A stretch of DNA of 41,142 bases from a virus. Its lineage: Duplodnaviria > Caudoviricetes. The stretch lies in the IMG/VR virus record IMGVR_UViG_3300036793_000090, positions 1 to 41,142 of that record; one strand, written 5' to 3'. Position 1 is the stretch's first letter, and each line of letters begins with the position of its first letter. The notes beneath the pieces are model-generated. The model saw nothing but the letters and a program-made list of their open reading frames with translations, searched no databases and had not been told where the DNA came from. Positions 3,221-37,143 of the stretch are shown in pieces. Made by a program: the position numbers and the translations under genes.

Positions 3221-3372
3221 GGCTTCTCCTCGGGTTCCGGTACTTCGGTATCGCCGTAATGGCAGCAGCCTTCGCTCTGGTGCAGTACGGCGCAGCTCTG
3301 GTTCCTGATACGCCACCAGCGACAGCAGCGGGGACACTGAAGCACCATAGGCTGGCGGTCGTAAAGATGCAT
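3208..3372 (-). CDS. Small Cys-rich hypothetical protein (54 aa)
   Basis: ATG coupled to upstream TGA; MHLYDRQPMVLQCPRCC...EGCCHYG; fills the gap exactly. Confidence 0.5.
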   Translation of the reverse strand: MHLYDRQPMVLQCPRCCRWWRIRNQSCAVLHQSEGCCHYGDTEVPEPEEKPCES

Positions 3373-9709: not shown

Positions 9710-9728
9710 GACTCAACACCTCCCGAGA

Positions 9729-10568
9729 TTATGCCGCCCGGAAGATTAGCGGTGCAGGGATAACAAGCGCGTTACTAGCGTTGCTGGCGCTCCATTTAGC
9801 AGTTAGTACCAGAGGACCGCTGCCGCTGATTGCAACACTAGTTGCGTTCGACGCAACGCCAGATGACGTAGTAGTGGTGCTCTGCCACCACGAGTTAAGG
9901 TTTGCAACAGCGTGCGTTGTGTCGATCAAGGTAACCGTTGCGTTGAAATCAAAACTGGACCCTGAAGGAATGGAAGCGGTAAGTGCCGGACACTTAGTGC
10001 CTGTTACCATAGACAAGATAGAAGTTCCCGCTATCCCGCCCCAGCGCAGGTTCCAGGTGAGCGTAGGCGCACTTGAAGTGGTCTGAATTGACCCGAATGC
10101 AATAACTTCCCATGATGCTCCGGCTATCAGCTCGTCCGACGTAGGCTGGTAGGTGGCAACGAGAGTTTCAGTGAGGCTCGTGTTATAGCTAACAGGAGTC
10201 ACGGACGCACTGGGTGTCTGCTTGAAGTTCTGGAGCGTACCGTGGGAAATAACCTGGACGTACGTCGCTCCGCTGGCGTGCGCTACCGGAGCCGTGCCAA
10301 GGGCACCCCGGGTTACATGCCACGAAGTAGTGGTGCTGTTATCGGTGACCAGGACTATTTCATTGGTGGTGTCAGCAGGGTCACGTGCGTAGAAGTACGT
10401 ATTGGGCACGGAACTGGTCTGAGCGGCAGGGAATGAAGTGTTTCCCGTGCTCATGGTCCACGTCTCGGTAACACCGCTAGAAGGGCTGCTGGTGCCGTTA
10501 GTTCCGCCGGACCCGGCAGCAGCCACGCACGATGCGCTGTTAGCGAAGACTTCCTTGGAAATAGCCAT
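9729..10568 (-). CDS. Ser/Thr-rich structural (fibre-associated) protein
   Basis: 'EIVLVT...VTRGALGTAPVAHASGA' motif common in phage fibre proteins. Confidence 0.6.
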   Translation of the reverse strand: MAISKEVFANSASCVAAAGSGGTNGTSSPSSGVTETWTMSTGNTSFPAAQTSSVPNTYFYARDPADTTNEIVLVTDNSTTTSWHVTRGALGTAPVAHASGATYVQVISHGTLQNFKQTPSASVTPVSYNTSLTETLVATYQPTSDELIAGASWEVIAFGSIQTTSSAPTLTWNLRWGGIAGTSILSMVTGTKCPALTASIPSGSSFDFNATVTLIDTTHAVANLNSWWQSTTTTSSGVASNATSVAISGSGPLVLTAKWSASNASNALVIPAPLIFRAA

Positions 10569-13526: not shown

Positions 13527-13665
13527 ATAGCGAGTACAACTGAATCCCCCGGCCCCGCTTGCGTGCTTCCGCCAACACGACGGCACGAACACCTACCTAC
13601 CCATCAGGTTCATGTTGTAGGCGTTGCGGGGACCGGGGACTCTTACGTTGGAGAGGAATTACCCA

Positions 13666-13932: not shown

Positions 13933-14119
13933 CCTGCCGCTGGTAGCCGTCGATCACAGACGAGGGCACTACACGGGTCACGACACGGATCGCGTAGGAG
14001 AGCTGGAAGCGCGTCTCGGAGTAGGTGGAGGCGTCCACGAGCAGCAGGAAGGCATCGCTCTCCCACTTGGCGAGGTTAACCGCCTCGCGATCCGGGCCAG
14101 GCCCCGCGTCCACTGCCAT
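13892..14119 (-). CDS. Hypothetical protein
   Basis: Coding-like codon usage; overlapped by the deaminase ORF tail. Confidence 0.5.
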   Translation of the reverse strand: MAVDAGPGPDREAVNLAKWESDAFLLLVDASTYSETRFQLSYAIRVVTRVVPSSVIDGYQRQARKMWKPSGGSSP

Positions 14120-14628
14120 ATCTTCAGGCTACGCTTCGGTTCCTGCCTGGTCCACTGGCCCCCGTACCAGGTAACCTGGGCATAACCCGCGCCCTTGAGC
14201 AGCTTCCAGCAACCGTCACAGGGCTCGTCGGTGAGATACAGGTGAGCATCCCAGGCCAGTATCCCGGCCCGTATGGTGGCGTTCTGCTCCGCATGGAGGG
14301 CTATGCAGGCTCCCGGCCCGGTATCGTACGAGCTGCCCGCTTCCACGGCGTCAGGGCAGGGCCATCCCTTACCGCAAGCGCATTCGAATATGGAATCCAG
14401 GGTCTTTGAGAATGTGTCTGTCCGGTAGTGGCGTCCTCGCGGGCACGCGCCGTCTGAAAGGCAGCCAGGCTGGCCGGGAGCGGAGCCGTTGTAGCCGGTA
14501 GCGATGATGTGCTTCGTAGCGGGATCGACTACGACCGCGCCTACCTTGCGCCGCGTGCAGTCGGCTCGTGCGGCTACCGAGTCAGCGATGCCGAGGAAGT
14601 AATCGGTCCAGTTAATCCTCTTCGCCAT
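13978..14628 (-). CDS. dCMP deaminase family protein
   Basis: 'ADCTRRKVGAV', 'TGYNG', 'HAEQNA', 'PCDGC' zinc-deaminase motifs. Confidence 0.9.
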   Translation of the reverse strand: MAKRINWTDYFLGIADSVAARADCTRRKVGAVVVDPATKHIIATGYNGSAPGQPGCLSDGACPRGRHYRTDTFSKTLDSIFECACGKGWPCPDAVEAGSSYDTGPGACIALHAEQNATIRAGILAWDAHLYLTDEPCDGCWKLLKGAGYAQVTWYGGQWTRQEPKRSLKIWQWTRGLARIARRLTSPSGRAMPSCCSWTPPPTPRRASSSPTRSVS

Positions 14629-14748: not shown

Positions 14749-15309
14749 TCACGGCTTCTTCCAGGCTCCCCGGTTACCCATGTCGAAGTCATCGACCACA
14801 GTCGTCCAGTGCTGCGGGGGGTTCTGGAGAGCGGCCCCGGCAAGGATGGCACCGGACTTCATCTCCGTGTAGATCTTCTGCTCTAGCTGGTCTTCCAGCG
14901 CCTCGTCACGGAACGGCCGGTAAAGCCAGATGATGTCGTGCTTGTCGTAGCCGTAGGGATAGTCGAGGGCATCTCCTACCCAGACCGGCCCGCGTGCCTT
15001 CTTCAGGGCCTCGTCAGCCAGGTACCCGGAGTACTCGATTCCGGAGGTGATAAGCCCGAACAGCTCGCGGGCTATCATTGACTTGGTGCCGATACCGCAG
15101 CCCACTTCGAGGAACTTAACGCCATCGGTAATAGCTACGACCTCGGTCATGATGGCTACGAAATCAGCAATCTGGAATGGCATGTAGCTCGTGCGTGTCT
15201 TGTCGCCGCCCTGGATCATGAAAGCGAAATCCCCGTCGAATGCCTCGTTTAGCGTACGCTGAAGCCTTCCGACGCGGCCATTGCCGATATAACTATTCTC
15301 GTCAATCAT
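14749..15309 (-). CDS. Class I SAM-dependent methyltransferase
   Basis: 'FLEVGCGIG', 'GIE', 'GDAL', 'YRPF'. Confidence 0.8.
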   Translation of the reverse strand: MIDENSYIGNGRVGRLQRTLNEAFDGDFAFMIQGGDKTRTSYMPFQIADFVAIMTEVVAITDGVKFLEVGCGIGTKSMIARELFGLITSGIEYSGYLADEALKKARGPVWVGDALDYPYGYDKHDIIWLYRPFRDEALEDQLEQKIYTEMKSGAILAGAALQNPPQHWTTVVDDFDMGNRGAWKKP

Positions 15310-15318
15310 GGGCGCAGC

Positions 15319-15624
15319 TTACCACGACGTTGGCTTATCGGGGTCTCCGTATACAGCTTTTCCATCAGGACCGAGAATGTACTTGACCTCAGGGTCTTCA
15401 CCGAGTTCGAGGTAAACCGGGCTTTCCTGTCCCCAGCCGGCTCCTGAGTTCCCGGTGGAGCACTGATGGCAGAGACCGCCGGGGAGATTGTTATACGCCT
15501 CGTCCATAACCACGTCGAAGTCAACCTCGCCGTCTTCACCGATTATTTCATCAGTGAGTTCTACCTTGACGGTGTACTCGGCCCAGACGGAGAAAGATAC
15601 CGTCAGCTTGTCTCCTGTTTCCAT
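15319..15624 (-). CDS. Hypothetical acidic protein with CxxC
   Basis: Leaderless-type ATG after TAGAGT; 'LCHQC'. Confidence 0.6.
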   Translation of the reverse strand: METGDKLTVSFSVWAEYTVKVELTDEIIGEDGEVDFDVVMDEAYNNLPGGLCHQCSTGNSGAGWGQESPVYLELGEDPEVKYILGPDGKAVYGDPDKPTSW

Positions 15625-15636
15625 GGCGCGACTCTA

Positions 15637-15846
15637 TCAGAGTTCCCTGCCAACGCGGGCAAACCAGGACATAGCCGCCTCGATAGCCGCGTCCATCGGC
15701 CCCTGGCCTAGCACGTGCGCGCTGGGGCCGGTGATGCGGACTACGAAGCCGTCGTCAACCTGGGCAGCTTCGGCACGATGGCCCTCGGGAAGAACCTCTC
15801 CTACGTCAACCCAGTGCCACGCGTGGTCTTCTACGGGAATAGTCAT
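15637..15846 (-). CDS. Hypothetical protein
   Basis: Coupled to upstream stop. Confidence 0.55.
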   Translation of the reverse strand: MTIPVEDHAWHWVDVGEVLPEGHRAEAAQVDDGFVVRITGPSAHVLGQGPMDAAIEAAMSWFARVGREL

Positions 15847-16913
15847 CAGTCGTCAATCAGCCACTGGGGGTGCTCCAGGGTCCATTTCACCGTGCGCCGC
15901 AGGGACTCGCGGAACGGCACGGGCATCGACCATCCCAGCGACATGATCTTAGACGGGTCCAGGCCGTAGTGCGGGTCGTGACCGGGACGCGTGGTGTGGA
16001 AGTCCTCCAGCCGGTACTTCAGCGGCTTGCCGATGTCTTCCGCGATCATCTTCGCCAGGGTCAGGTTGTCTATCCTGTCCGGCGAGGCGATGTTGTAGCG
16101 GTCGGGGCGGTCATTGACAGGCTGGCTGTCGTAGCTCTTGTGCGCCGGGAATACGGTGGGATCGGTGTGCTCCAGCAGGAAGAGGCTGGCGTCGGCCACG
16201 TTGCGGGCATGCAGGTAGTGCCGCGTGCCGATATTGCCCTCGGAGCCGTGAATTGTTATCAGCTCGCCCTTGGCTACCTTCGCGATTACCCGGGGAATGA
16301 ACTTTTCCAGATCCTGCCGTTCCCCGATCATGTTCATGATGTTGAGGATGACCACCGGGACGCCGTAAGTGCGCCAGTAGGAGATGGCGATGTCTTCCTG
16401 GGCGGCCTTGGAGCCCGAGTACGGGTTCGAGGGAAGGATTACGTCCCATTCCGGGTGGCCCTTGAAATCGTCAGCGGCCACCGGCCCGTAAACCTCGTCA
16501 GTGCTGACCCAGATAACTGCCTTGGGCTTTAGCACGCGGGCCAGTTCCAGGGTATTCAGGGCGACTTCGGTGTTGTTCCGGATGAACGGGGCCGGGTCGG
16601 TGATAGAGCGGTCTACGTGGCTCTCCGACGCGATGGCGGCTATGTAGTCGATCTCGCCTATGCGCGCAGCTTCCCGGGCCGTGAACGGGGCCAGCAGGTC
16701 GTGAGTGATCACGTCGATGCGCTCACCCCACCACGGACGTGCAGATGAGAAGTCATCGTGAGAATGCAGCACTTCCGCGATCCGGTCATTAGTGCCTTTG
16801 TGCCGGAATGAGTCTGTGAGCACGCAGTCCCAGTCGGTACTGGACAGTACATGCTCAAGGAAGTGGTGGCCCACGAACCCGCCGGCCCCGGTAATGAGAA
16901 TCCGCTTAGTCAC
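15846..16913 (-). CDS. NDP-sugar 4,6-dehydratase (RmlB-like extended SDR)
   Basis: 'GAGGFVG', 'ASESHVDRS', 'STDEVYG', 'YSGSK', 'RPGHD'. Confidence 0.9.
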   Translation of the reverse strand: MTKRILITGAGGFVGHHFLEHVLSSTDWDCVLTDSFRHKGTNDRIAEVLHSHDDFSSARPWWGERIDVITHDLLAPFTAREAARIGEIDYIAAIASESHVDRSITDPAPFIRNNTEVALNTLELARVLKPKAVIWVSTDEVYGPVAADDFKGHPEWDVILPSNPYSGSKAAQEDIAISYWRTYGVPVVILNIMNMIGERQDLEKFIPRVIAKVAKGELITIHGSEGNIGTRHYLHARNVADASLFLLEHTDPTVFPAHKSYDSQPVNDRPDRYNIASPDRIDNLTLAKMIAEDIGKPLKYRLEDFHTTRPGHDPHYGLDPSKIMSLGWSMPVPFRESLRRTVKWTLEHPQWLIDD

Positions 16914-17916
16914 TGGTTAGCTCCGTCCAGGTACGCATCGCACGAGCCAGCTTATACCAGTAGTACTTGTGACCGTGGTCTTCCTGGGCAAAGTCTTCCA
17001 CTGAGTTCGCCAGGGCCAGGTAGCAGGTTCCCGCGTCGTCATAAGAGCTGATGTCAGCGGAAGCGACGTGCCGCCAGAACTTCTCGTGGACTTCGATTCC
17101 CGGCGCTTCCTTGATAACGCGCTCCTGCGGGTCAGATTCCTTGGTGTGCACGATGCTCGGGTACCCGGAAGTAACCAGCCAGCCCATCTGATCCGCGATC
17201 CGCTTGACGAACAGGCCGGCCCAGATGTCATCGAACCTATCGAACGGGAGCTTCTTCAGTCCCTGGCTCGTGCGCTCGTGACCCTGGAGCATGAAGTACA
17301 TCGCCGGAAGTACCTCGGGCGCGAAAGCCAGGTTCATCCCGCACATGGGGAACAGCTTGCCGTGCGGAATAATGCTCACGTCGGCGGCAGGCCCGGTACG
17401 AAAAGCGGGGTGATCTAGCGCGGTAACGCCGTCCAGGTCGGGAATATTCGACCAGAGCCCGTGGATCACCCTCACCGGCTTAAACTTCCTGATCTCATAG
17501 GGGTACCCCCGGGGGAACAGGCCGGATTCCGGCGGCAGCGTGTTTACCCATTCCTGCTCGCTGTACTTGTAGGTCAGCATGCACTCGAACTGGTAAGGAT
17601 ATTCCTGCCAGCGCGGCTCGGGAAAGCAGTCGTCGTCCAGGGTCCAGGTTACTTCGCCCTTTGCCCTCAGGAACCCGTAGCTCTTAACGGCCGAGCTGCG
17701 CCGGGGGATGATCCACGAGTCGCCGCCGAGATCACGGTCGATGTCGTCCCAGGCATAGTGCTCGAACTGGTCATAGCCAGACGTGTCCAGCTCGAACGAT
17801 TTAGAGGGGCTGTCCTCTACCAGGATTACCCGGCAGCCCCCGAGCTGGCTTCGCCAGGCTTCCAGCCAGCGTTTCATGGAAGCCTCGCGGCAGGAGGCGA
17901 TTACGATGGTTGTCAT
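16906..17916 (-). CDS. UDP-arabinopyranose mutase / reversibly glycosylated polypeptide (GT75)-like protein
   Basis: 'LDDDC', 'RGYPY', 'HGLWSNIPDLD', 'PMCGMNLAF', 'RFDDIWAG' match the RGP/UAM family signature. Confidence 0.8.
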   Translation of the reverse strand: MTTIVIASCREASMKRWLEAWRSQLGGCRVILVEDSPSKSFELDTSGYDQFEHYAWDDIDRDLGGDSWIIPRRSSAVKSYGFLRAKGEVTWTLDDDCFPEPRWQEYPYQFECMLTYKYSEQEWVNTLPPESGLFPRGYPYEIRKFKPVRVIHGLWSNIPDLDGVTALDHPAFRTGPAADVSIIPHGKLFPMCGMNLAFAPEVLPAMYFMLQGHERTSQGLKKLPFDRFDDIWAGLFVKRIADQMGWLVTSGYPSIVHTKESDPQERVIKEAPGIEVHEKFWRHVASADISSYDDAGTCYLALANSVEDFAQEDHGHKYYWYKLARAMRTWTELTSD

Positions 17917-18572
17917 CCGAGCGGCGCTCCGTGGTGGTATCCGTTGAGCCTGAAGGTCCCGGTGGGCTTGGCTGCCCATGGTACACCTGCTGCGGCCCAG
18001 CGCGTTAGCATCTGGCCGTCTCCCTCGTAGCCGTCCCTGGGGTCGAAGCCGCCGTGCGTCATCACGAGGCGGGCACGGTGCATAAGTCCGGAGGTGTCCG
18101 CGTGCCCTACCGCAGGAATAGGACTTATCTCGTGGCCCTCCCAGCCGCTCAGCGCGAACTCGATGTGCGGGTGATCCTGGAACAGGGCTACCATCTCGGC
18201 AATGTGCGTCTCCGCGTAGTCGTTGTCGTCGTCCAAGTACGCCACCAGGTCCCCTGTGGCAAGCAGAGAGCCAGCGAGGCGGGCGGTAGCCCCGAACCCG
18301 CAGAGAAAGCCCGTGTTTCCCCCGTAGCCTGCTGCCTGGTAGAGAGGAGTCCAGTTACGCCCGAGCGCCACGAACCTGCGGGGGGACTGGCCGTCGCCGC
18401 TGTAGCCCAGGCTGCGCAGCATGTCCTCGGTAGCCTGGTCGTCACCGTCGATTACCACGAGGTGCTGGAGATTGGAGTACGTCTGCCGGTCAATAGACGC
18501 ACAGGCGTGGTCCCTGATCGTAGTCGGACGCTGCCAGGATGACGTGACTACGGTTACGAGAGGATCATTCAC
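17913..18572 (-). CDS. Glycosyltransferase family 2 (GT-A)
   Basis: 'PLVTVVT', 'QTYSN', 'VIDG', 'VAYLDDDN'. Confidence 0.85.
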   Translation of the reverse strand: MNDPLVTVVTSSWQRPTTIRDHACASIDRQTYSNLQHLVVIDGDDQATEDMLRSLGYSGDGQSPRRFVALGRNWTPLYQAAGYGGNTGFLCGFGATARLAGSLLATGDLVAYLDDDNDYAETHIAEMVALFQDHPHIEFALSGWEGHEISPIPAVGHADTSGLMHRARLVMTHGGFDPRDGYEGDGQMLTRWAAAGVPWAAKPTGTFRLNGYHHGAPLG

Positions 18573-19588
18573 TGAAACAGCCTTTCATATGCCTTTTCCC
18601 ATTTATGCCAATTGGCTTCTACGGTAAAGGCCGAGGCGTGCACTTTACCTTTTTCGCCCATTTCCTTACGAAGGTCAGGATTATCCGCCAGCAGGCGAAT
18701 GTACTTCATCCAGTCATGAGGGCTTTGATTCTTCACCAGGAAGCCGTTCTCCCCGTGCACGATGTACTCGCGGTACGGCTGTACATCAGAGGCAATAACT
18801 GGGATACCGCGTGCGTTGTACTCCAGCGTTTTCAGCGCCGACTTCGAACGGCTGAATGTCGTATCCTTCAACGGGACAATGCCTATGTCGAAGTCAATGG
18901 ACTCATAGTAGGCGCGCTCGTCGTCATTGATTTGCTTCCATCCGGAGTAGATCATCTGGTCCCAGTTTCGAGCGTTAAATGACGGGCGGTAATCGGTGCC
19001 TCCGACAAGTAGGTCCCAGTTGTCGTTCTTAGCAAGGAACCGGCGGACGGGCTGAGCCGCCTCGTGAATATCCAGGCCGTGACTTGCCCCTCCTATCCAG
19101 CCGAGCCTCGGACGGCGATTAGTTTCCTTCGGCAAGTCCAGTACATACTCGGGAACGCAGTTCGGCAGCACGGCAACGTTCTTGCACTCGTGGCCCCGGT
19201 GAAGCTGCGCCAGCGTCTCGGTTGTCACTGTTACCAGGTCAGCGGTCTGACTGTACCCCTCGATGGATTCCCGCACGGTAGGTTCGCTATACCGCTGGTA
19301 AGCTGCCCAGTTCACCTTTTCGACATTGAACAGGTCATCGTCAGTTTCGTAGACAAGCCGGTTATGAGGTTTCCGCGCACGCCGCCACATCGACATCCCG
19401 TTGTATCCAGCGAGCCGCTGACAGGCCAGCACGTCATAATCACTAGCGTTGCGGATGTGCTCAATAGTCTCTGTGTCCGACGTGTTGCTGAAGGTGACCT
19501 CATGCCCGTGCTTTGCAAGCTCGCGAAGGGGCTGAACCATCCGGACGTGCCCGCATCCCAGGCCGTCGTTTGCTGCGAGGATCTTCAC
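18569..19588 (-). CDS. Glycosyltransferase, GT-B (GT4-like)
   Basis: 'YETDDDL', 'DIGIVPL...KS.LK.LEY...GIPVIAS', 'HGENGFLV'. Confidence 0.85.
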   Translation of the reverse strand: MKILAANDGLGCGHVRMVQPLRELAKHGHEVTFSNTSDTETIEHIRNASDYDVLACQRLAGYNGMSMWRRARKPHNRLVYETDDDLFNVEKVNWAAYQRYSEPTVRESIEGYSQTADLVTVTTETLAQLHRGHECKNVAVLPNCVPEYVLDLPKETNRRPRLGWIGGASHGLDIHEAAQPVRRFLAKNDNWDLLVGGTDYRPSFNARNWDQMIYSGWKQINDDERAYYESIDFDIGIVPLKDTTFSRSKSALKTLEYNARGIPVIASDVQPYREYIVHGENGFLVKNQSPHDWMKYIRLLADNPDLRKEMGEKGKVHASAFTVEANWHKWEKAYERLFQ

Positions 19589-24147: not shown

Positions 24148-25753
24148 CTAGTCGTTCAGTCCGCCAGGGGGCAGTTCCTTGTAGTTCTCCACCATGTCCC
24201 TGACTACGGAATTGGGGATCTGGGCGGTAAAACGGTTCATGTCAACGGATTCCATTAGCGCCCGCTGAACGTGCGAAAGGCGCAATATGGCCGCTGCCTC
24301 GTGCTTTCCCATGGTGTCAAGCTCGCGCGAGTAGGCGTTCATCATGTTCGCGTAGAACTGGCCAGGATCGTTAGCGGGGCCGGTGGGAGCGCCAGTATTG
24401 GGGTCGGGCTCGAATTCCCCTCCAGCCGGGGTCTTAGTCATTCCCTGCTTCTGAAGGCCCTCCAGCTTGTTGCCCGCGAGGTCCATGAGCAGTACAACCT
24501 GGTCCAGCATCGACTTCGGCAGTGCGCCGGCACGCTGGGCCATGGAGACCATGAGCTGAAGCGGCAGGGACTCGCCGCCCGCGCCCTTGGGAAGCGGCGG
24601 CAGGTCTTCCAGCTCGCGCAGCTCGTCGGTAGAGCGCAGGCCGATGTTCCGCTGAATCTGGTAGATCTCGGTGCGCGTCTTGAGGTCCGTCTTCAGCAGC
24701 GCGTCAGTATTGAAAGCGACTACGCGGCGCTGGGGCAGCAGGTCAGCGAACGCCCACTCCAGGCGGCACAGCCACGGCCTGAGGGCTTCGATTACCTGAA
24801 GCTGGTTCTGCTCCACGGTGTTGTAGGTGAGCGAGTCTCCGCTCTTTCCGCCGACCCTGTTAGGCGGCAGGTCCAAGATCGAGGCGATGTGCGTGGCATT
24901 GAGCTGCATGGCGTCGATGAACTGTGCCTCGGACGGCGGAACGGTAACAGGGGTGTAGTCCCAGTCACGTCCGTACACGAGCGGTTCGCGCCTCTGGAGC
25001 GAGGTAACGAGCATGCGGCGAATCGTTGCGGCCTGCTCAGCATCGACTTCAAGTTCGGAGTTCTGGAATGTACCGGGAGGGAATCCGCCGGACGCGTACC
25101 AGTCAGTTCCGTAGCGCTGCGCTTCCCAGCCGGCCAGGATTGTCAGTGCGAACGCTCGCAACGGGGAAAGCCCCTCAAGGCGGCCTGCCATCGCATAGCC
25201 CTTGAGATGGAAAACCTCAGCGTCAGGACCGTACCACTTCATTTTCCGGCCGTAGGCGTAGACATTCTGGGCAAGCGGGTTGAAGTTAGTCGGGTCTTCC
25301 TGCTCTACTATTACGTACTCGGGCGGAATCCACTCTATTCCCGTGGGGTAGCCGAATCCGTCGCGGCCGGTAATAAGGCCCCAGGCATTGCCCTGTAGCG
25401 TCAGGCTGGACATGCACGAGAACATCCAGTCGTAAACAGTCCCGGTAACAGACGGCTTGTCGAAGATGCTAGGTCCGTTATAGGGAACCCTGCGACCGTC
25501 GCGGCTCTGGGTATAGACCTTGACTGGAAGGGACGCGGCATTGTCAGAGAGGATCTTCGTTCCGGCGTACAGGGCGGGAAGTCCCAGCGCCTTGTCTACG
25601 CCGAATAGCTGACGCGTCGGGTGAACAGGCCCGCCCACGTCGAAGCGCATGAAAGGATCGGTCCACGGCTGTTAACTGCCACGGCACTCCACCGATAGCC
25701 CGCTTTTCTACGCGCTTCGAGGAGTGTGCAGAGATATTCTCTAGCAAACCCAT
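24148..25753 (-). CDS. Portal protein, interrupted by a 7-nt coding gap at 25669-25675
   Basis: HK97-portal motifs ('GNAW', 'GLSPL', 'EAQF'); AAGGAGG+ATG at 25753 is out of frame with the body, joined across CAG-TTAA-CAG. Confidence 0.9.
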
Positions 25754-25945
25754 GACCAAACCACCTCCTTTACACGCCACATGCACAAGTGCATGGCTCG
25801 TAACGGGGATTGGCCAAGGACCAGCCGAATTGCGGTCCTGCTCCGCTCCTAACCCGGCTCTGCTAGACGAGTGTGGTGCGCTGACTAACAGCCACGGGCT
25901 ACTTGCTAGTTTGGAGTAGTTTGCCTGATCATGCAAATTTTCGCA

Positions 25946-25951
25946 TATACT
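25946..25951 (+). promoter_or_regulatory. -10 element (TATACT) for leaderless HNH transcript
   Basis: TATACT 6 nt before ATG 25958; TTGCCT at 25921. Confidence 0.5.
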
Positions 25952-25957
25952 ACTTAT

Positions 25958-26539
25958 ATGCGCGATGACCTGATAGGGAAGACATTCGGCCGCCTGACAG
26001 TAGTGCGGCACGACCGAGGCAAAGGCTGGCTGTGCCTCTGTGAGTGCGGCGAGGAGATCCACACACGGCCTGGATGCCTGGAAAGTGGCAATACCCGTAG
26101 CTGCGGGTGCCTGCACAAAGAGGCTGTCACTAAGCACGGGCACGCACGTAAATCAAGGCACAGCACAACCTATAATTCCTGGTCAGCGATGATCAGCCGA
26201 ACTACTAACCCACAACACCCGCGTTGGGCTGACTGGGGCGGCCGGGGCATTACGGTTTGCGATAGCTGGCGTGAATTCGAGAACTTCCTTGCCGATATGG
26301 GCGAGAAGCCTCCGGGCATGACACTAGAACGGATAAATAACAACAGCGGCTATAGCAAGTCCAATTGCTGCTGGGCAACTCCTGCGCAGCAAGCGCGTAA
26401 TAATCGCGGTTACCGCCTGACTCCTGATGTACGGAAGCGTATTGCCGAGCTAGCTGAAGACGGTAACACCATGATTCAAGTCGGAAAAATCGTCGGACTG
26501 AATCGCCATACAGTGTCTAAGGCGTGGCCTGATCTTTAG
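25958..26539 (+). CDS. Free-standing HNH homing endonuclease
   Basis: 'GKTFGRLTV', 'CLCECG', 'SCGC', 'GGRGITVC..W', 'TLERINN...Y...NCCWAT..QQARN'; inserted opposite to operon. Confidence 0.9.
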   Translation: MRDDLIGKTFGRLTVVRHDRGKGWLCLCECGEEIHTRPGCLESGNTRSCGCLHKEAVTKHGHARKSRHSTTYNSWSAMISRTTNPQHPRWADWGGRGITVCDSWREFENFLADMGEKPPGMTLERINNNSGYSKSNCCWATPAQQARNNRGYRLTPDVRKRIAELAEDGNTMIQVGKIVGLNRHTVSKAWPDL

Positions 26540-26801
26540 GGACAACCTGCACCCGAGCACCCTTGTGGAACCCGTAGCGCATGCATGCGCCGGTCCAGCG
26601 AACACGGTTGAAGGTCCAGAGGGCGCTGAACACGACTACGAACCATGCGGTGCCTACGCTCCAGCCAATCGACGTGAAGACGAAGGCGATTGCGGTCAGC
26701 AGCATGCGGCGCGTGAACTGAACCGGGTGAATGTCTCGTGCCCGTTCCGCTATTTCCGAGCTAGGCCGGAGTACCGGCGGGTGAACATGCGTCATAGTCA
26801 T
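26517..26801 (-). CDS. Small membrane protein
   Basis: Hydrophobic stretch 'MLLTAIAFVFTSIGW...WFVVVF'; upstream of portal. Confidence 0.6.
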   Translation of the reverse strand: MTMTHVHPPVLRPSSEIAERARDIHPVQFTRRMLLTAIAFVFTSIGWSVGTAWFVVVFSALWTFNRVRWTGACMRYGFHKGARVQVVPKDQATP

Positions 26802-31150: not shown

Positions 31151-32824
31151 ATGGTTGCCGTTGCTATCGACTACGAAGAGGAAATCTTCGGAAACCAGAT
31201 GCCTCGGCTGTGGACAGCGCCGGACAGGCACCGGGATGAAACTGACGGCTGCAAGTCGTGTGCGATATCAGACGACGGCCTTGGCGGGATAGGCTGCGGC
31301 AATTACCTAGCCACGGAAATGCTCGACTGGGCTCGGGGATTCGGGTACAAGGCCGACCCGTGGCAGGAATGGGTCATGCGGGAAGCCTGCGGCACGCGGC
31401 CTGACGGCAAGTGGGCTAGCTTTGAGAATGACCTTATCGTTAGCCGGCAGAACGGAAAGGGCACGATCCTCGAAATCCGCGAGCTGGCGGGCATGTTCGT
31501 CTTGGGCGAGGAACTGATCATCCATACCGCCCACGAGCTGAAGACCGCGCAGGAGCACTTCCGCCGCGTCGTGTCCACGGTCGAGAACTATCCCGCGCTG
31601 TCGCGCCGCCTCAAGGGCAAGCCGCGTGCGTCCCACGGTGAAGAAGCGATCGAGCTGATATCCGAGCCGACACTTATCTTCGGCTCCGGACGCAGGCGCA
31701 TGTACAAGAAGGTCGGCCCGCGACTCCGCTTCCTGGCCCGCTCGCGCGGTAGCGCCCGTGGATTCACCTGCAACTGCCTGATCTACGACGAGGCGATGAT
31801 CCTCTCGGCTGAGGCGGTCGGCGCATCCATGCCCACGATGGCCGCCGTGCCCAACTCCCAGATGTGGCTCACCGGCTCGGCCGGCCTGGAAGACTCTGAG
31901 CAGCTTGCGCGCTCGCGCCGCCGTATCGTGCACAACACCAAAGACCTGTTCGGCGCTGAGTGGTCGGTACGGCCTCACCTGGTTACCTGCCCCGTAGACC
32001 GCGAGAACGGCCGGACTACGAACAACTACGTCGTGTGCGAGGAGCACGACGACCGCGACGACCCGGTTGCATGGGCTAAGGCGAATCCCGCGTTCGGCTA
32101 CCGGCTGTCGGCAGAGTTCACCAAGAACGAGATGGCGACGCTGGCGACCGTAGAATTCGACCGCGAGCGGCTGGGCGTCGGCCAGTGGCCTGCGGAAGAC
32201 GAGGCGTGGCGCGTCGTGTCAGAAGACTTGTTTAAGTCTTTGACACTGGAGAACCCCGGCAACATCCCGGCTGGCGGCCAGCTCGCCTTTGCCCTGGACG
32301 TCGATGAGGGCGGCGCTAACTCCACGATCGCGGTGAGCTGGACCCACAAGGACGGCTGCCTGGTCATGGAGATCCCGAAGAACTGCTCGCGGCCGGGCAC
32401 CGACTGGGTAGTTGACCGCCTGGAAGAACTCGTGAAGAAGTACCACCCGCTGGCGATCGTGGCACCGAGGAACGGTCCAGCGGCCGGCCTCGGTGACGAC
32501 CTGGAGAAGCTGTGGCCCAAGCACCACAAGTTCGGCTCCCGCCTGATCCGCACCGGCCCTGCCGACGAGGCTGCGGCGTTCGCCTGGTTCGTACAGCAGT
32601 GCAAGAGCGAGAACAAGCCCCTGAGGCACCTGGGCGAGAAGAAGGGGTACAAGCTCTGGCACGCCGTGGGAACGGCTGAGAAGCGCGTTGTGGGCGACGG
32701 AGGGGAAACCTGGAGCCGCCGGGACAGTACCACCGACATCACGCCGGCTACGGCATGCAACCTCGCGGCATGGGGACTGAACAAGAAGCGCAGGAACTAC
32801 GACCTGCTTGCATCGGTTCGCTAG
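31151..32824 (+). CDS. terL: Terminase large subunit
   Basis: 'PWQ', Walker A 'SRQNGKG', Walker B 'LIYDEA', 'WAKANPA', 'FDRERLG'; leaderless after TGnTACTAT. Confidence 0.95.
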   Translation: MVAVAIDYEEEIFGNQMPRLWTAPDRHRDETDGCKSCAISDDGLGGIGCGNYLATEMLDWARGFGYKADPWQEWVMREACGTRPDGKWASFENDLIVSRQNGKGTILEIRELAGMFVLGEELIIHTAHELKTAQEHFRRVVSTVENYPALSRRLKGKPRASHGEEAIELISEPTLIFGSGRRRMYKKVGPRLRFLARSRGSARGFTCNCLIYDEAMILSAEAVGASMPTMAAVPNSQMWLTGSAGLEDSEQLARSRRRIVHNTKDLFGAEWSVRPHLVTCPVDRENGRTTNNYVVCEEHDDRDDPVAWAKANPAFGYRLSAEFTKNEMATLATVEFDRERLGVGQWPAEDEAWRVVSEDLFKSLTLENPGNIPAGGQLAFALDVDEGGANSTIAVSWTHKDGCLVMEIPKNCSRPGTDWVVDRLEELVKKYHPLAIVAPRNGPAAGLGDDLEKLWPKHHKFGSRLIRTGPADEAAAFAWFVQQCKSENKPLRHLGEKKGYKLWHAVGTAEKRVVGDGGETWSRRDSTTDITPATACNLAAWGLNKKRRNYDLLASVR

Positions 32825-33032: not shown

Positions 33033-33035
33033 CTA

Positions 33036-33116
33036 GGTGGAGCTGCACGGAATCGAACCGTGGTCCGGGTGGTCTCCGCATGCGGCCTCACTCACCAGTC
33101 GAAACCTTCCAGCCCC
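33036..33116 (-). ncRNA. Miniature tmRNA-like RNA (tRNA-like domain only, no tag ORF)
   Basis: 5' GGGGCUGGAAGGUUUCGAC and 3' GGAC-CACGG-UUCGAUU-CCGUG-CAGCUCC-ACC; G3.U70; only ~30 nt between the ends. Confidence 0.85.
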
Positions 33117-33209: not shown

Positions 33210-33283
33210 TGGACGGAGATATCGGATTCGAACCGATGTGACGAGGGTTGCAATCTCGTACCTAGCCTCTCGGACAATCTCCG
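33210..33283 (-). tRNA. tRNA-Cys(GCA)
   Basis: Loop UU-GCA-AC; U73; encoded CCA. Confidence 0.85.
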
Positions 33284-33289
33284 TAAAGT

Positions 33290-33356
33290 ACGCTCGTCGG
33301 GAGTCGAACCCGATATGCATCCTTCGAAGGGATGCAGACCCGTCCGGGGACGAGCG
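33290..33356 (-). tRNA. tRNA-Arg(UCG), non-canonical
   Basis: Acceptor CGCUCGU/ACGAGCG; 7-bp anticodon stem, loop CU-UCG-AA; tiny D arm. Confidence 0.65.
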
Positions 33357-33361
33357 TAAAG

Positions 33362-33438
33362 TACTGGCAGCAGGAGTCGAACCTACACAGCCGAAGCGAC
33401 AGATTTACAGTCTGCGATGATCGCCAATTCGTACCAGC
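33362..33438 (-). tRNA. tRNA-Tyr(GUA)
   Basis: Loop CU-GUA-AA; variable arm; weak D stem. Confidence 0.8.
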
Positions 33439-33439
33439 A

Positions 33440-33515
33440 TGGAGGGTCGTGCGGGATTCGAACCCGCCAATAACAGCTTCACGGACTGCTTCCTCAGCCA
33501 CTTGGATCACGACCC
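33440..33515 (-). tRNA. tRNA-His(GUG)
   Basis: Loop CC-GUG-AA; encoded CCA; lacks G-1:C73. Confidence 0.75.
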
Positions 33516-33588
33516 GGTACCTAATGAAGGAATCGAACCTTCATCCTCGCTTTGTAAGAGCGTCACTCTCCCATTGAGCTAATCAGGC
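33516..33588 (-). tRNA. tRNA-Val(UAC)
   Basis: Loop CU-UAC-AA. Confidence 0.9.
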
Positions 33589-33635
33589 TTGGAAGGCCCC
33601 GGTGCTTACCCTCTATAGCAGCGGCCAGGGCCTTG

Positions 33636-33709
33636 TATCGCCTAAGGGACTCGAACCCCTACTCTCCTGGTTCGTAGCCAGGTGCATTATTCCATTCTGC
33701 TAAGGCGAC
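33636..33709 (-). tRNA. tRNA-Arg(ACG)
   Basis: Loop CU-ACG-AA. Confidence 0.9.
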
Positions 33710-33710
33710 G

Positions 33711-33783
33711 CGGTGCGTACCGGATTTGAACCGGCGGCTTCTGCCGTGACAGGGCAGCACTCTGACCACTGAGTTAACACACC
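33711..33783 (-). tRNA. tRNA-Asp(GUC)
   Basis: Loop CU-GUC-AC; G73. Confidence 0.9.
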
Positions 33784-33834
33784 TTGGTCTGGGTATTTTT
33801 TAGTATTTGGCCTCGCGCCCCCAGCGGCGCTGTG

Positions 33835-33906
33835 CTCTCGTACCTGGATTCGAACCAAGGACGCGTTGGTTAACGGCCAACCGCTCTACCTCTGAGCTAT
33901 ACGAGA
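33835..33906 (-). tRNA. tRNA-Asn(GUU)
   Basis: Loop CC-GUU-AA; G73. Confidence 0.9.
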
Positions 33907-33939
33907 ATGGTGGCCTTTTAACGTCCTGCCCGGGACGAG

Positions 33940-34012
33940 TGGCGGGGCTGGGAATCGAACCCAGAATCTCCAGGCTTATGAGGCCGGTAACTTACCGTTT
34001 GTCCACCCCGCA
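33940..34012 (-). tRNA. tRNA-Met(CAU), initiator-like
   Basis: Loop CU-CAU-AA; 1:72 mismatch; A11-U24. Confidence 0.8.
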
Positions 34013-34013
34013 G

Positions 34014-34085
34014 TAGTCCCACAGGGAGTCGAACCCTGTTCCTGAGAGTGAAAATCTCAGATCCTAACCCATAGACGATGGGACC
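34014..34085 (-). tRNA. tRNA-Glu(UUC)
   Basis: Loop UU-UUC-AC. Confidence 0.9.
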
Positions 34086-34105
34086 TTTGTTCTTACATTG
34101 TAGCG

Positions 34106-34179
34106 TGCTCCGTATCGGATTCGAACCGATGATCTCGCTGGCTGAGAACCAGGAATCCTGACCGCTAGACCAACGGAGC
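34106..34179 (-). tRNA. tRNA-Glu(CUC)
   Basis: Loop UU-CUC-AG. Confidence 0.85.
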
Positions 34180-34326
34180 ATAAGTGACAGCTTTTCCCGT
34201 TTACTGGCGCTGGGCGGCGCTCCGAACGTGACTAAGGAGTAGGTTTAAGGGACTTACGATCGCATTACGGCAGGGCTAGCCTGCGGCGGTACACGTTCCC
34301 AAGTATCAGCCCTGCTGTCAACCTCG

Positions 34327-34402
34327 TAACGACGGTGGGATTCGAACCCACGAGTTTGCCGGATTATGAGCCCGGTCGCTTAGACCACTTGCATACGTCG
34401 CA
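34327..34402 (-). tRNA. tRNA-Met(CAU)
   Basis: Loop CU-CAU-AA; U1.U72 mismatch; initiator vs elongator unclear. Confidence 0.8.
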
Positions 34403-34403
34403 G

Positions 34404-34475
34404 TGCCTCCCGAAGGATTCGAACCCTCAGCTCGCGGGGTAAAAGCCCTGGATGTTGCCATTACACCAGAGAGGC
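34404..34475 (-). tRNA. tRNA-Lys(UUU)
   Basis: Loop CU-UUU-AC; imperfect anticodon stem. Confidence 0.8.
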
Positions 34476-34476
34476 G

Positions 34477-34550
34477 TAAGCTCGGCGGGAATCGAACCCA
34501 GCTACCACCCGCTTATAAGACGGGCGCACATACCAGCGTGCTTCGAGCTA
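34477..34550 (-). tRNA. tRNA-Ile(UAU)
   Basis: Loop CU-UAU-AA. Confidence 0.75.
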
Positions 34551-34551
34551 G

Positions 34552-34624
34552 TACCGACTCTGAGAATCGAACTCAGCGCAGTGACCTTATCAGAGTCACC
34601 GTATCGACCAGATATCCAATCGGC
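34552..34624 (-). tRNA. tRNA-Ile(GAU)
   Basis: Loop CU-GAU-AA. Confidence 0.8.
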
Positions 34625-34632
34625 TTGTAAAG

Positions 34633-34716
34633 CGGAAGGCAGAGGTGTCGAGCCCCCAGGGGTTGCCCCCTGTACTCGCTTTCGAGGCGAGGTGCAGCGC
34701 CGGCCGCATGCCCCCC
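34633..34716 (-). tRNA. tRNA-Ser(CGA), 8/4 fold
   Basis: Loop CU-CGA-AA; long variable arm; 8-bp acceptor, 4-bp T stem. Confidence 0.75.
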
Positions 34717-34815
34717 ATTTGCAGCTACTGGTTGAACTCCCCAGTCTTTCCAGCTTCGGTTAGGCGAGCCCCGGTTTATTAGGATCGCGCACACCAGGCC
34801 GCTGCCGTGCCTGAG

Positions 34816-34904
34816 AGGATGATGCGAGAGTCGAACTCGCGAGGAGGCGTAAACCCCCTACCAACTTTCCAAGCTGGCGCAATAGGCCACTATGCGAATC
34901 ATCC
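34816..34904 (-). tRNA. tRNA-Ser(GGA)
   Basis: Loop UU-GGA-AA; long variable arm. Confidence 0.9.
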
Positions 34905-34955
34905 ATGCCGGGCCTGGCTTCCGGTGGACCCAATTTGGGAGCCTGCCAGGCCCCG

Positions 34956-35040
34956 CCGAAGATAGAGTACTCGAAACTCAGGGCGTTACCACCCCCATCT
35001 CGCTAGCAACGAGCGGCCGGCCCTGCCGACTTTACCTCCG
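34956..35040 (-). tRNA. tRNA-Ser(GCU), 8/4 fold
   Basis: Loop UU-GCU-AG; long variable arm; 8-bp acceptor, 4-bp T stem. Confidence 0.75.
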
Positions 35041-35079
35041 ATGATGCCCCTACTTATATAGCTCCGAGGCGCGAGCTTG

Positions 35080-35162
35080 TACGCGAGACGGGACTCGAAC
35101 CCGTACGCCCTTCCGGGCACTGACTCCTCAAGCCAGCACGTCTTCCATTTCATCACTCGCGC
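35080..35162 (-). tRNA. tRNA-Leu(GAG)
   Basis: Loop UU-GAG-GA; long variable arm. Confidence 0.9.
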
Positions 35163-35216
35163 ATAAGCCTCAGGGTTTTTAATCCCACCTTCCATACCAG
35201 GTACCTGAGCGGGTAG

Positions 35217-35287
35217 TGCGGTAACCGGGGCTCGAACCCGGACCCCGAACTTGGCAAGCTCGGATGATTCCCTTTCACCATTACCAC
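35217..35287 (-). tRNA. tRNA-Gly(GCC)
   Basis: Loop UU-GCC-AA. Confidence 0.9.
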
Positions 35288-35333
35288 AAGACTCCCAGAA
35301 GGTTATTTCCGGACCTGTAAGCTGGGAGCAAAG

Positions 35334-35407
35334 AGCCTACTGTGAGATTCGAACTCACGACCTGTGCCTTACCATGGCACCGCTCTAACCACTGGAGCTA
35401 AATAGGC
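35334..35407 (-). tRNA. tRNA-Thr(GGU)
   Basis: Loop AU-GGU-AA. Confidence 0.9.
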
Positions 35408-35408
35408 G

Positions 35409-35484
35409 TGGAGCCAATCATCGGACTTGAACCGATAACCTTCGCTTTACAAGAGCGCCGCTCTGCCGTTGGAGCTAGATTGGC
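35409..35484 (-). tRNA. tRNA-Thr(UGU)
   Basis: Loop CU-UGU-AA; encoded CCA. Confidence 0.9.
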
Positions 35485-35548
35485 ATGTTGAAGTGTTAAT
35501 TAACCGAGATGCTTCACCCTCGGGCGATACGCTGTTACGCGCTCTACG

Positions 35549-35623
35549 TACCCCATGCGGGATTCGAACCCGCAGCATCAGGATTTCTGAGACCCTGTGG
35601 TCTGCCAGTTGCCATAACGGGGC
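35549..35623 (-). tRNA. tRNA-Leu(CAG), short variable region
   Basis: Loop CU-CAG-AA; 6-bp anticodon stem; no long variable arm. Confidence 0.75.
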
Positions 35624-35624
35624 G

Positions 35625-35697
35625 TGCGCCAGAAGTGTTCCAGCCTGGAGGGATTCGAACCCCCACTTCTGACTTAGAGGGTTTGCAACCCCTCTCG
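35625..35697 (-). ncRNA. Rearranged tRNA-like RNA with a canonical T arm
   Basis: Hairpin AGAGGG/CCCUCU, then 10-bp stem GUCAGAAGUG/CACUUCUGGC enclosing a UUCGAAU T arm. Confidence 0.5.
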
Positions 35698-35770
35698 CTA
35701 CCCACCCTGGATTCGAACCAGGAATCGCCTGCATCAGACGCAGGAGCCTTGCCTGTTTGGCCAGTGGGCA
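35698..35770 (-). tRNA. tRNA-Gln(CUG)
   Basis: Loop GU-CUG-AU; U1-A72, G73. Confidence 0.85.
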
Positions 35771-35771
35771 T

Positions 35772-35848
35772 TGGTACTCAGGGCGGGATTTGAACCCGCA
35801 GCATCAGGAGTTTTGAATCCCCGTGGTCTGCCAGTTGCCTACCCGAGC
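35772..35848 (-). tRNA. tRNA-Leu(CAA), short variable region
   Basis: Loop UU-CAA-AA; D and T regions nearly identical to Leu(CAG); encoded CCA. Confidence 0.75.
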
Positions 35849-35849
35849 G

Positions 35850-35921
35850 TACCCCCACAGGGAATTGAACCCCGCTCCTCTGATTAAGAGTCAGATGCAT
35901 CTGCCGCAATGCTTTGGAGGC
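35850..35921 (-). tRNA. tRNA-Lys(CUU)
   Basis: Loop CU-CUU-AA. Confidence 0.9.
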
Positions 35922-35994
35922 ATGACCCGCGTATTTTATTTTATATACCGCCCGCAATTGGGTCAGCGGTAGGTCCCTGTGCACCGGAACCAAG

Positions 35995-36068
35995 AGCCAG
36001 CCATCGGAGTCGAACCGATAACCTGCCGATTACGAAACGGCTGCTCTAGCCATTGGAGCTAGGCTGGC
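35995..36068 (-). tRNA. tRNA-Thr(CGU)
   Basis: Loop UU-CGU-AA. Confidence 0.9.
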
Positions 36069-36145
36069 ATATGGAGAGCTTTGACCCTCACCCGCACGGT
36101 CTATCGCGAATGCCGTGTAATGGGTACTCTCCGTGAAAGGGTCCG

Positions 36146-36217
36146 TGAGGTAGGTGGGAGTCGAACCCACAGTGCCACATTGGAAGTGTGGGAGTTTAGC
36201 CGTTAACTGACTACCCC
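36146..36217 (-). tRNA. tRNA-Gly(UCC)
   Basis: Loop CU-UCC-AA. Confidence 0.85.
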
Positions 36218-36218
36218 G

Positions 36219-36290
36219 TGGTACCCGCTGGTAACGATCCAGCCTCTCAGGCTTTTCAGGCAAGCGCTAATCCATCTTAGCTAGAGCACC
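36219..36290 (-). tRNA. tRNA-Phe(GAA)
   Basis: Loop CU-GAA-AA; atypical T loop AUCGUUA; mismatched anticodon stem. Confidence 0.75.
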
Positions 36291-36329
36291 ATGTTCCCCC
36301 GTTTTTAACGTCCTGGTCAGGCGGACTCG

Positions 36330-36402
36330 TCGGGAACCCCGGAGTCGAACCGGGTTTCTCTTGCATCCCGAGCAAGCAGATTAACCGTCTTCCTCGCTCC
36401 CG
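36330..36402 (-). tRNA. tRNA-Pro(GGG)
   Basis: Loop UC-GGG-AU; C1-G72, A73. Confidence 0.85.
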
Positions 36403-36488
36403 ATGTCCGGTTTTCGCCGGGGGTGATCAGCCCCTAGCCTGGAGGCACCGTATCCAGTTTCGGCAGGTGATTCCGGAGGTCTCCTGCC

Positions 36489-36583
36489 TGGGTGCTCGTC
36501 GGCTCGCCGCTCTCCCCATTGAGCTACGCACCCGGTTAAGGGTGCGGCAGGACTCGAACCCGCATCTGCTTACCTGTGAGCAC
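36489..36583 (-). ncRNA. Y RNA (YrlA)-like permuted tRNA mimic
   Basis: Order T arm, loop-closed acceptor stem, D arm, all inside terminal stem GUGCUC/GAGCAC; no anticodon loop. Confidence 0.75.
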
Positions 36584-36586
36584 TTG

Positions 36587-36658
36587 TCGGGTACCTGGGA
36601 GTCGAACCCAGTGTCTCTTCGATCCGAACGAAGCAGATTTCCGTCTTCCTCGCACCCG
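36587..36658 (-). tRNA. tRNA-Pro(CGG)
   Basis: Loop UU-CGG-AU; C1-G72, A73. Confidence 0.85.
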
Positions 36659-36843
36659 TCGGCGGTCTAACATCAAGTTCAGGTATTCTCAGGGGACTAA
36701 TCCTGAGAAAACGCTCGGCTGGCCCTCGATCGCGGGCAATCAACGTGTTGGCACCCTGCATGACGGCGGGAGAAAGACCGCAGAAACCTTATTCCCGCTT
36801 TATCCGCTACCCTCAGCCAGTCACGGCCTACTCTCGCAGAATG

Positions 36844-36915
36844 TGGAGATGATGGGATTCGAACCCACATGTGACTGCTTGCAAAACAGTTGCTTCCCTG
36901 TCAGGCCACATCCCC
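36844..36915 (-). tRNA. tRNA-Ala(UGC)
   Basis: Loop UU-UGC-AA; G3.U70. Confidence 0.9.
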
Positions 36916-37071
36916 ATGTGGGAGCCGGATGGAAGCCGACTCCCGTATTCGTAGTCATTGGCTGGAGGACCGTCTGACTACGAAGCTTTTTCTATGCTCA
37001 CCACTGTGGAGTTGTCTAGTATCAAGTCCGTTCACATCTCTGCCCGCGAAGGTTTCGGTAGTGGGACTAAG

Positions 37072-37143
37072 CACGCCGCCGAGGAGTCGAACCCCGACCA
37101 AGAGGTTTGGAAGCTCTTGTGCTAGCCGTTACACCAGCGGCAT
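37072..37143 (-). tRNA. tRNA-Trp(CCA)
   Basis: Loop UU-CCA-AA; G73. Confidence 0.85.

Follow-up and report, generated by a model that had tools for sequence, protein, structure and literature searches.

TTA-led coding gaps in the portal genes of soil phages: a probable ribosomal hop at the edge of a likely mobile module

How does a phage produce an essential head protein from a gene whose reading frame is broken near its start? The question is raised by the portal gene of an uncultured soil phage, studied here in a 41,142-nt stretch of DNA (positions 1 to 41,142 of IMG/VR record IMGVR_UViG_3300036793_000090; hereafter the window). The portal is a head-assembly protein, and its gene, on the minus strand, lies upstream of protease and capsid genes. 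Translation should begin at the ATG at 25753, which follows an extended Shine-Dalgarno sequence, AAGGAGGTGG (25761..25770, minus strand, 7-8 nt 5' of the ATG), of the strong type typical of the gapped portals described below. Codons 1-26 (25676..25753) end in CAG (25678-25676). There the frame is interrupted by 7 nt (25669..25675) made up of TTA (25675-25673), a single A (25672) and a second CAG (25671-25669). When the TTA is read as Leu, straight translation gives a product of 69 amino acids (25544..25753) that ends at the stop codon 25546-25544 and is not a portal. In the +1 frame a TAA (25674-25672) is met, and a 507-codon frame holding the portal body opens right behind it. That body, which runs from CCG, the codon at which reading would resume, to the stop codon (24148..25668), is of the HK97 type and matches PF04860 with an E value of 6e-50 and 170.6 bits against a cut-off of 39.1. 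Skipping the 7 nt joins 26 and 506 codons into a protein of 532 residues. A first-pass annotation, made from the window's letters, had described this split, the two identical CAG codons and the 69- and 532-residue products, and all of these are confirmed in the sequence.

The closest homologs have 532-536 residues (P0004 532, P0006 534 and P0007 532), so the joined protein has their length. They are contiguous across the site, as had been anticipated, with P0006 reading GGVPWQPWTDPF, and their N-termini are homologous to the first 26 codons of the window's gene. The gap is one of many. Three of the 42 loci recovered by protein search carry a TTA insert at the same codon, and a motif ending W-x-TTA gave 32 viral matches, every one a portal, and 29 portals among 104 matches in metagenomes. 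When the base after W-x was instead any base other than C, 32 of 47 viral matches were portals, 31 of them with TTA and one with AAA; with C in that position, portals made up 112 of 120 among about 150 matches, and all 112 had Pro. No Leu codon other than TTA followed W-x in any of these portals.

TTA-led inserts were found in 54 of 128 distinct related portal 5' ends, and 72 of the 128 have no gap. A profile aligner that permits skips but is blind to TTA, run on the 124 of these 5' regions that were long enough, returned 65 gaps that begin with TTA. They belong to 51 genes and occupy nine positions in a stretch of about 15 codons. The gaps range from 2 to 15 nt and take 12 different lengths, 7 nt being found in 25 of the 65, and they fall in all three frames (37/15/13, the 37 being +1). 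Fifty change the frame, and at least one such gap is present in 40 of the 51 genes. Outside the position on which the pattern had selected, TTA begins 22 of the 23 frame-changing gaps. Several relatives carry two or three gaps in one gene. On a tree of 112 of the 128 portal bodies (16 short or unclassified rows were omitted), the gap is scattered, with 27 changes, at least 18 of them forced on well-supported branches.

Some members of the family depart from this pattern. L487 has a 7-nt gap led by AAA, with an HNH gene adjoining, and L108 a 9-nt gap led by TGA; decay, error or other slow codons are suggested as alternatives for these two. L482 combines a strong ribosome-binding site with no gap and has ACG where a start codon is expected, and L046 still carries, ahead of its current portal 5' end, the remains of an older one. 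Long in-frame insertions in the bodies of the portals of G004 (7550-10141) and of G471/G472 (open frames of 990 and 871 amino acids), which are also TTA-gapped, are possibly inteins.

How these gaps are decoded may be read from the codons that flank them. Compared with the take-off codon, the landing codon is identical in 13 of the 65 gaps, synonymous in 34, alike at two of three positions in 15 and otherwise different in three; the 18 that are neither identical nor synonymous mostly follow TGG. Of the 47 gaps whose take-off and landing codons share a decoding box, 45 end at the earliest triplet from that box. By the wobble rules, the pairs CGA/CGC or CGT, CAA/CAG, AAT/AAC and TAT/TAC can each be read by one tRNA. 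Such pairs point to reading by one tRNA rather than to the leftover of a DNA duplication, and the spread of lengths from 2 to 15 nt over all frames fits a slide rather than a fixed shift. CGA, which pairs weakly, serves as take-off codon for 29 of the 41 genes gapped at the window's site, but just two of 72 intact genes have it. Contiguous homologs, the conserved 26 codons, 65 independently built gaps whose landing codons match or nearly match, and the scarcity of usable downstream starts together lend strong support to a hop, and we consider it very probable, on this comparative footing, that the gap is decoded by ribosomes hopping between matched codons. To that extent the first-pass annotation, which had proposed such a hop, is borne out; the purpose that it ascribed to the hop, gating by a scarce tRNA, is not established.

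The hairpin that had been proposed at the gap does form, with a 7-bp stem and -13.2 kcal/mol, but its stability does not exceed that expected by chance (z -1.09), and equally good folds arise in 55% of controls with synonymous shuffling. As a specific signal at this site it is not supported. Across the gap set, 41 of 57 stem-loops are stronger than their control, a modest excess among sites that are not independent. Internal Shine-Dalgarno sequences 5' of the take-off codon have a median of -9.6 kcal/mol, against -7.0 in intact genes, in a stretch constrained by Gly-Gly-Val. A search for split matches between the window and 3,385 frames of related loci revealed no other hop site among the window's genes with relatives in that set.

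Could the portal be made without a hop? A +1 frameshift at or after the TTA, or removal of bases at the RNA level, would agree with the 37 gaps that are +1, and the 2-nt gaps after TTT in L027 and L161 are formally shifts. However, in the window the +1 frame has its TAA directly before the landing codon, so that a single +1 shift meets a stop here, and such a shift cannot account for gaps in three frames across the family. With 12 lengths, landing by decoding box rather than by DNA repeat and no slippery run at the window's site, we regard this explanation as highly improbable. More improbable again is a fresh portal start at Met 25650, with the 26 codons serving as a leader. This Met does lie upstream of the Pfam domain, but its ribosome-binding site scores -6.2 kcal/mol against -19.0 at the ATG at 25753; of the 40 frame-broken relatives, 15 offer no in-frame start codon upstream of the conserved core and just one offers a start with a fair site, and 48 of the 54 gapped genes preserve the N-terminal motif. 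An assembly error or a dead gene is already largely refuted and seems to us barely credible. It is true that a single sequencing run covers the site (a contig from X1, of depth 16 and possibly from the source sample, spans the gap unchanged; X2 and X3 have no coverage there), but the gap is not an assembly error, because it belongs to a set of 54 distinct gapped 5' ends among the 128. In these the TTA is always in frame and the gene bodies are intact, and the near-complete gapped genomes have one portal each.

If the hop is real, the question becomes how the gap came to be there. Between the portal and a gene for a small membrane protein (26517..26801, minus strand), which directly precedes the portal in intact relatives, the window has a predicted HNH-type endonuclease gene with a C-terminal helix-turn-helix (25931..26539, plus strand; phrog_374, E 2e-58), divergent from the portal. 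The HNH gene is absent from this place in the closest intact relatives, and the membrane-protein gene marks the left edge of the inserted module: the distance from its end to the Trp codon is 178-250 nt in nine close intact relatives and 838 nt in the window. The HNH identification comes from PHROGs alone; a Pfam HNH search was negative, and the nuclease part has no solved relative. An HNH gene of any kind adjoins 17 of 43 gapped and one of 63 intact portals, and one of the window's own family lies within 1.6 kb of 16 of the 43 and one of the 63. In a set that had not been selected for TTA the window's family is found at four of 11 gapped and one of 44 intact portals. The neighbouring HNH of L001 and L070 belongs to another family. 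Counted by independent pairs, 6.8 of 18 go in the same direction and none in the opposite one (median p 0.016, range 0.002-0.125). No recognisable nuclease is found within 1.5 kb at 26 of the 43 gapped portals, and therefore loss of the nuclease after insertion must be assumed. In L122 (4207-4827) and L129 (1358-1990), a divergent phrog_4652 gene takes the place of the HNH gene before a gapped portal.

The second companion of the gap is the initiation site. An extended Shine-Dalgarno of the form GG[AG]GGTG precedes 53 of 54 gapped portals and two of 70 intact ones, and by independent pairs 15.3 of 17 agree in direction, with none opposed (median p 6e-5). Sequence identity also jumps at the gap. 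The window and intact L006 are divergent 5' of the gap and then identical for 48 nt 3' of it; L458 and L484 are 97% identical upstream, then differ by the HNH gene and a divergent 5' end, and are near-identical from the gap onward; and the same jump is seen in two pairs of gapped portals with different upstream modules. At third codon positions, the identity of gapped genes to their nearest intact relatives rises from 0.43 on the 5' side of the gap to 0.63 on its 3' side (30 of 51 pairs); in control pairs of intact genes the corresponding values are 0.64 and 0.73 (48 of 72). The window and L001 have the leader and first codons in common, and their portal bodies are not sisters. A second TTA gap in G472 (near 61349, minus strand; near 1349 in locus L497) is 4 nt long, leads from TAC to TAT and lies in a glycosyltransferase gene, a homolog of window 2144-3337, with a gene carrying a NUMOD4 motif divergent upstream. 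We suggest that the gap is the edge of a mobile module consisting of the HNH gene, a very strong ribosome-binding site and a replaced portal 5' end, an origin that is better supported than gating. Neither the HNH gene nor the covariation of the ribosome-binding site with the gap had featured in the first-pass annotation.

The alternative function for the same hop is that of a sensor, with the portal made only when the host is short of charged tRNA-Leu(UAA), virion assembly thereby tied to the growth phase of the host, and the HNH gene merely spreading the gap. This was the model of the first-pass annotation and is that of Hau3, for which it is supported (PMC10732093). TTA is indeed rare in the window (one of 10,939 codons in 53 modelled genes), and a sensor would agree with the retention of TTA rather than any other rare codon, with the 26 gapped genes that have no nuclease nearby and with serial gaps, which would sharpen a switch. 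The prevalence of frame-changing gaps favours it as well, since decoding TTA as Leu would throw 40 of the 51 gapped genes out of frame. Nine of the 51, however, keep a frame open for more than 100 codons, and therefore the tRNA cannot shut these. The window's tRNA array (33210..37143, minus strand) does lack Leu(TAA), as had been noted, although ARAGORN finds 27 tRNAs by default and 33 non-overlapping ones under relaxed settings rather than the 34 first reported. The array is context and not specific to the gap: G470, an insert-free relative, also lacks a Leu(TAA) tRNA, and two gapped genomes are devoid of tRNA genes, so we reject the missing tRNA as evidence for gating. Moreover, the 72 relatives mentioned above are gap-free, and the gap is often gained or lost. 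No tyrosine integrase was found in any of five large related records and no serine recombinase in four of them, the records without either including three that are gapped (G471, G472 and G005); the fifth, G473, carries a serine recombinase, which would suit a sensor. The window itself is a 41-kb fragment. No Streptomyces host was found. On balance, we consider a sensor unlikely, though a good deal less so than the explanations that dispense with the hop.

Several further elements of the window stand out. A dCMP-deaminase-like frame (13978-14628, minus strand) overlaps the next gene by about 45 codons and has a TTA at codon 184, in the overlap. An 82-nt tmRNA-like element (33035-33116, minus strand; RF00023, 53.5 bits against a cut-off of 47) consists of two joined tRNA-like ends with no tag-reading frame; L070 has a weaker copy of it (13574-13650), and insert-free G470 a similar element (10204-10279). 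As speculation, it could bind SmpB and blunt the rescue of stalled ribosomes. Inside the tRNA array, positions 36508-36568 (minus strand) give a weak Y-RNA-like (YrlA) match of 34 bits, below the cut-off of 69.

The explanation that we favour, with somewhat better than even confidence, is that the gap arrived with the HNH gene as the edge of a mobile module and that ribosomes stall at the TTA, slide seven bases and go on to make the 532-residue portal. The predicted HNH enzyme would cut intact portal alleles within the conserved GGVPW-x-PW stretch during mixed infections, and repair would copy in the HNH gene, the new 5' end and the gap. The insert would then disrupt the predicted cutting site while leaving the protein unchanged. 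In the infected cell UUA may be read slowly, which would make the TTA the likely A-site codon of the stall; peptidyl-tRNA-Gln would leave the first CAG, slide seven bases and re-pair on the first matching triplet, the second CAG. The very strong initiation site may compensate for ribosomes lost at the gap or feed a queue behind the stall. The nuclease would often be lost later, with the gap and the ribosome-binding site persisting. No productive infection could then do without the hop, and if host tRNA-Leu(UAA) has an influence at all, this would be a side effect. We put forward more tentatively, as something that may well prove wrong, that inserts of this form (a codon, TTA, 0-9 filler bases and a matching codon) are silent and give selfish phage nucleases a general trick that needs no intron. 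In hosts that in effect leave UUA unread, nuclease modules could then break their targets at will and stack gaps in an arms race, and the extended Shine-Dalgarno would be obligatory, driving or paying for the hop.

Two known systems come close to this one. In Streptomyces phage phiHau3 and two prophages, UUA-led gaps have been described in the large terminase by Antonov et al. 2023 (PMC10732093; Smith et al. 2013 cited therein), at four sites in three of 100 terminases and with reporter and mass-spectrometry support, and Hau3 has been called the best candidate for regulatory bypassing (PMC5009743). As in the portals, a short insert lies in an essential packaging gene with an in-frame UUA at its 5' end, the flanks are collinear in homologs, there is a landing codon, gaps may be serial, and one of the prophage gaps is also 7 nt long. 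The differences are that the window's gap is in the portal, its terminase (31151-32824) having no in-frame TTA; that the portals have 65 gaps of 2-15 nt, some of them in frame; that the searches point to no Streptomyces host; and that the portal gaps go together with an HNH gene and a strong site of initiation, an association not found in the sections of PMC10732093 searched.

The other is the mobA/gene 60 cassette of T4, in which, according to Manning and Atkins (10.1101/2022.08.31.505936, which also cites Bonocora et al. 2011 for the cassette), the gap blocks nicking and the nuclease is lost later. Here too a matched-codon gap lies at the edge of a module that contains an HNH gene together with the region of the target gene in a divergent version, gains are repeated and recent, and the nuclease is often lost while the gap is kept. 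In contrast, the gene 60 gap is 50 nt long and follows a stop codon, whereas the portal gaps are of 2-15 nt at a hungry UUA; the topoisomerase gene is split in two and the portal gene is not; and there is no homology between the systems, nor a strong conserved stem-loop in the portals. Protection from cutting by the T4 gap makes protection by the portal gaps a prediction by analogy. The byps of Magnusiomyces mitochondria, as treated in the same source, are likewise many bypassed inserts, several to a gene, that begin at a codon with no tRNA and tolerate a relaxed match between take-off and landing, but they are GC-cluster-like mobile elements of 27-55 nt, whereas the portal gaps have no common filler sequence. 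The portal gaps are thus Hau3-like in decoding and mobA/gene 60-like in origin, and members of neither. Our literature search, which covered few subscription journals, turned up neither a portal gene with TTA bypass nor any connection between UUA gaps and HNH genes.

The host is likely to be actinobacterial, because of the nearest relatives and one source label, Trebonia. The nearest cultured portals found by protein search are those of Mycobacterium cluster J phages, which share the PF04860 family and the order membrane gene, portal, protease and capsid, but at 30-34% identity and, in Courthouse and Ariel, with intact portals and no HNH gene there. A DNA search matched no cultured phage, and 401 genomes of one actinomycete order (that of Planomonospora) gave 14 matches, the nearest at 40-45% and none close. 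In a motif search, matches for a host tRNA-Leu(UAA) stayed at the control level. A pattern scan of genome contigs gave one portal in 62 matches, on a 1.6-kb contig in an Acidobacteriaceae bin, which is too weak to name a host. The large terminase subunit of the window (31151-32824, plus strand) is 5.4 kb from the portal and on the opposite strand, unlike in relatives, which have it ahead of the membrane gene. Glycosyltransferases, an epimerase, an RGP-family mutase and a methyltransferase lie among the virion genes (14749-19588 and 2144-3337, minus strand), and this cluster likely serves virion glycosylation.

Natural translational bypassing has been documented in very few systems, and the literature consulted leaves undecided whether it serves regulation or merely the rescue of selfish inserts. 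The portal family offers a set of 65 natural versions of a minimal signal (take-off, UUA, filler and landing), with near-isogenic partners that have no gap, which puts this question within reach of short reporters and cleavage assays. It also has a practical side, as gene callers truncate or mis-start essential genes that carry such gaps (P0003, P0047 and P0103). If silent inserts do prove to be an intron-free trick of phage nucleases, bypassing would be common and repeatedly invented in the genes of soil actinophages rather than a rare feature confined to T4, Hau3 and one yeast mitochondrion.
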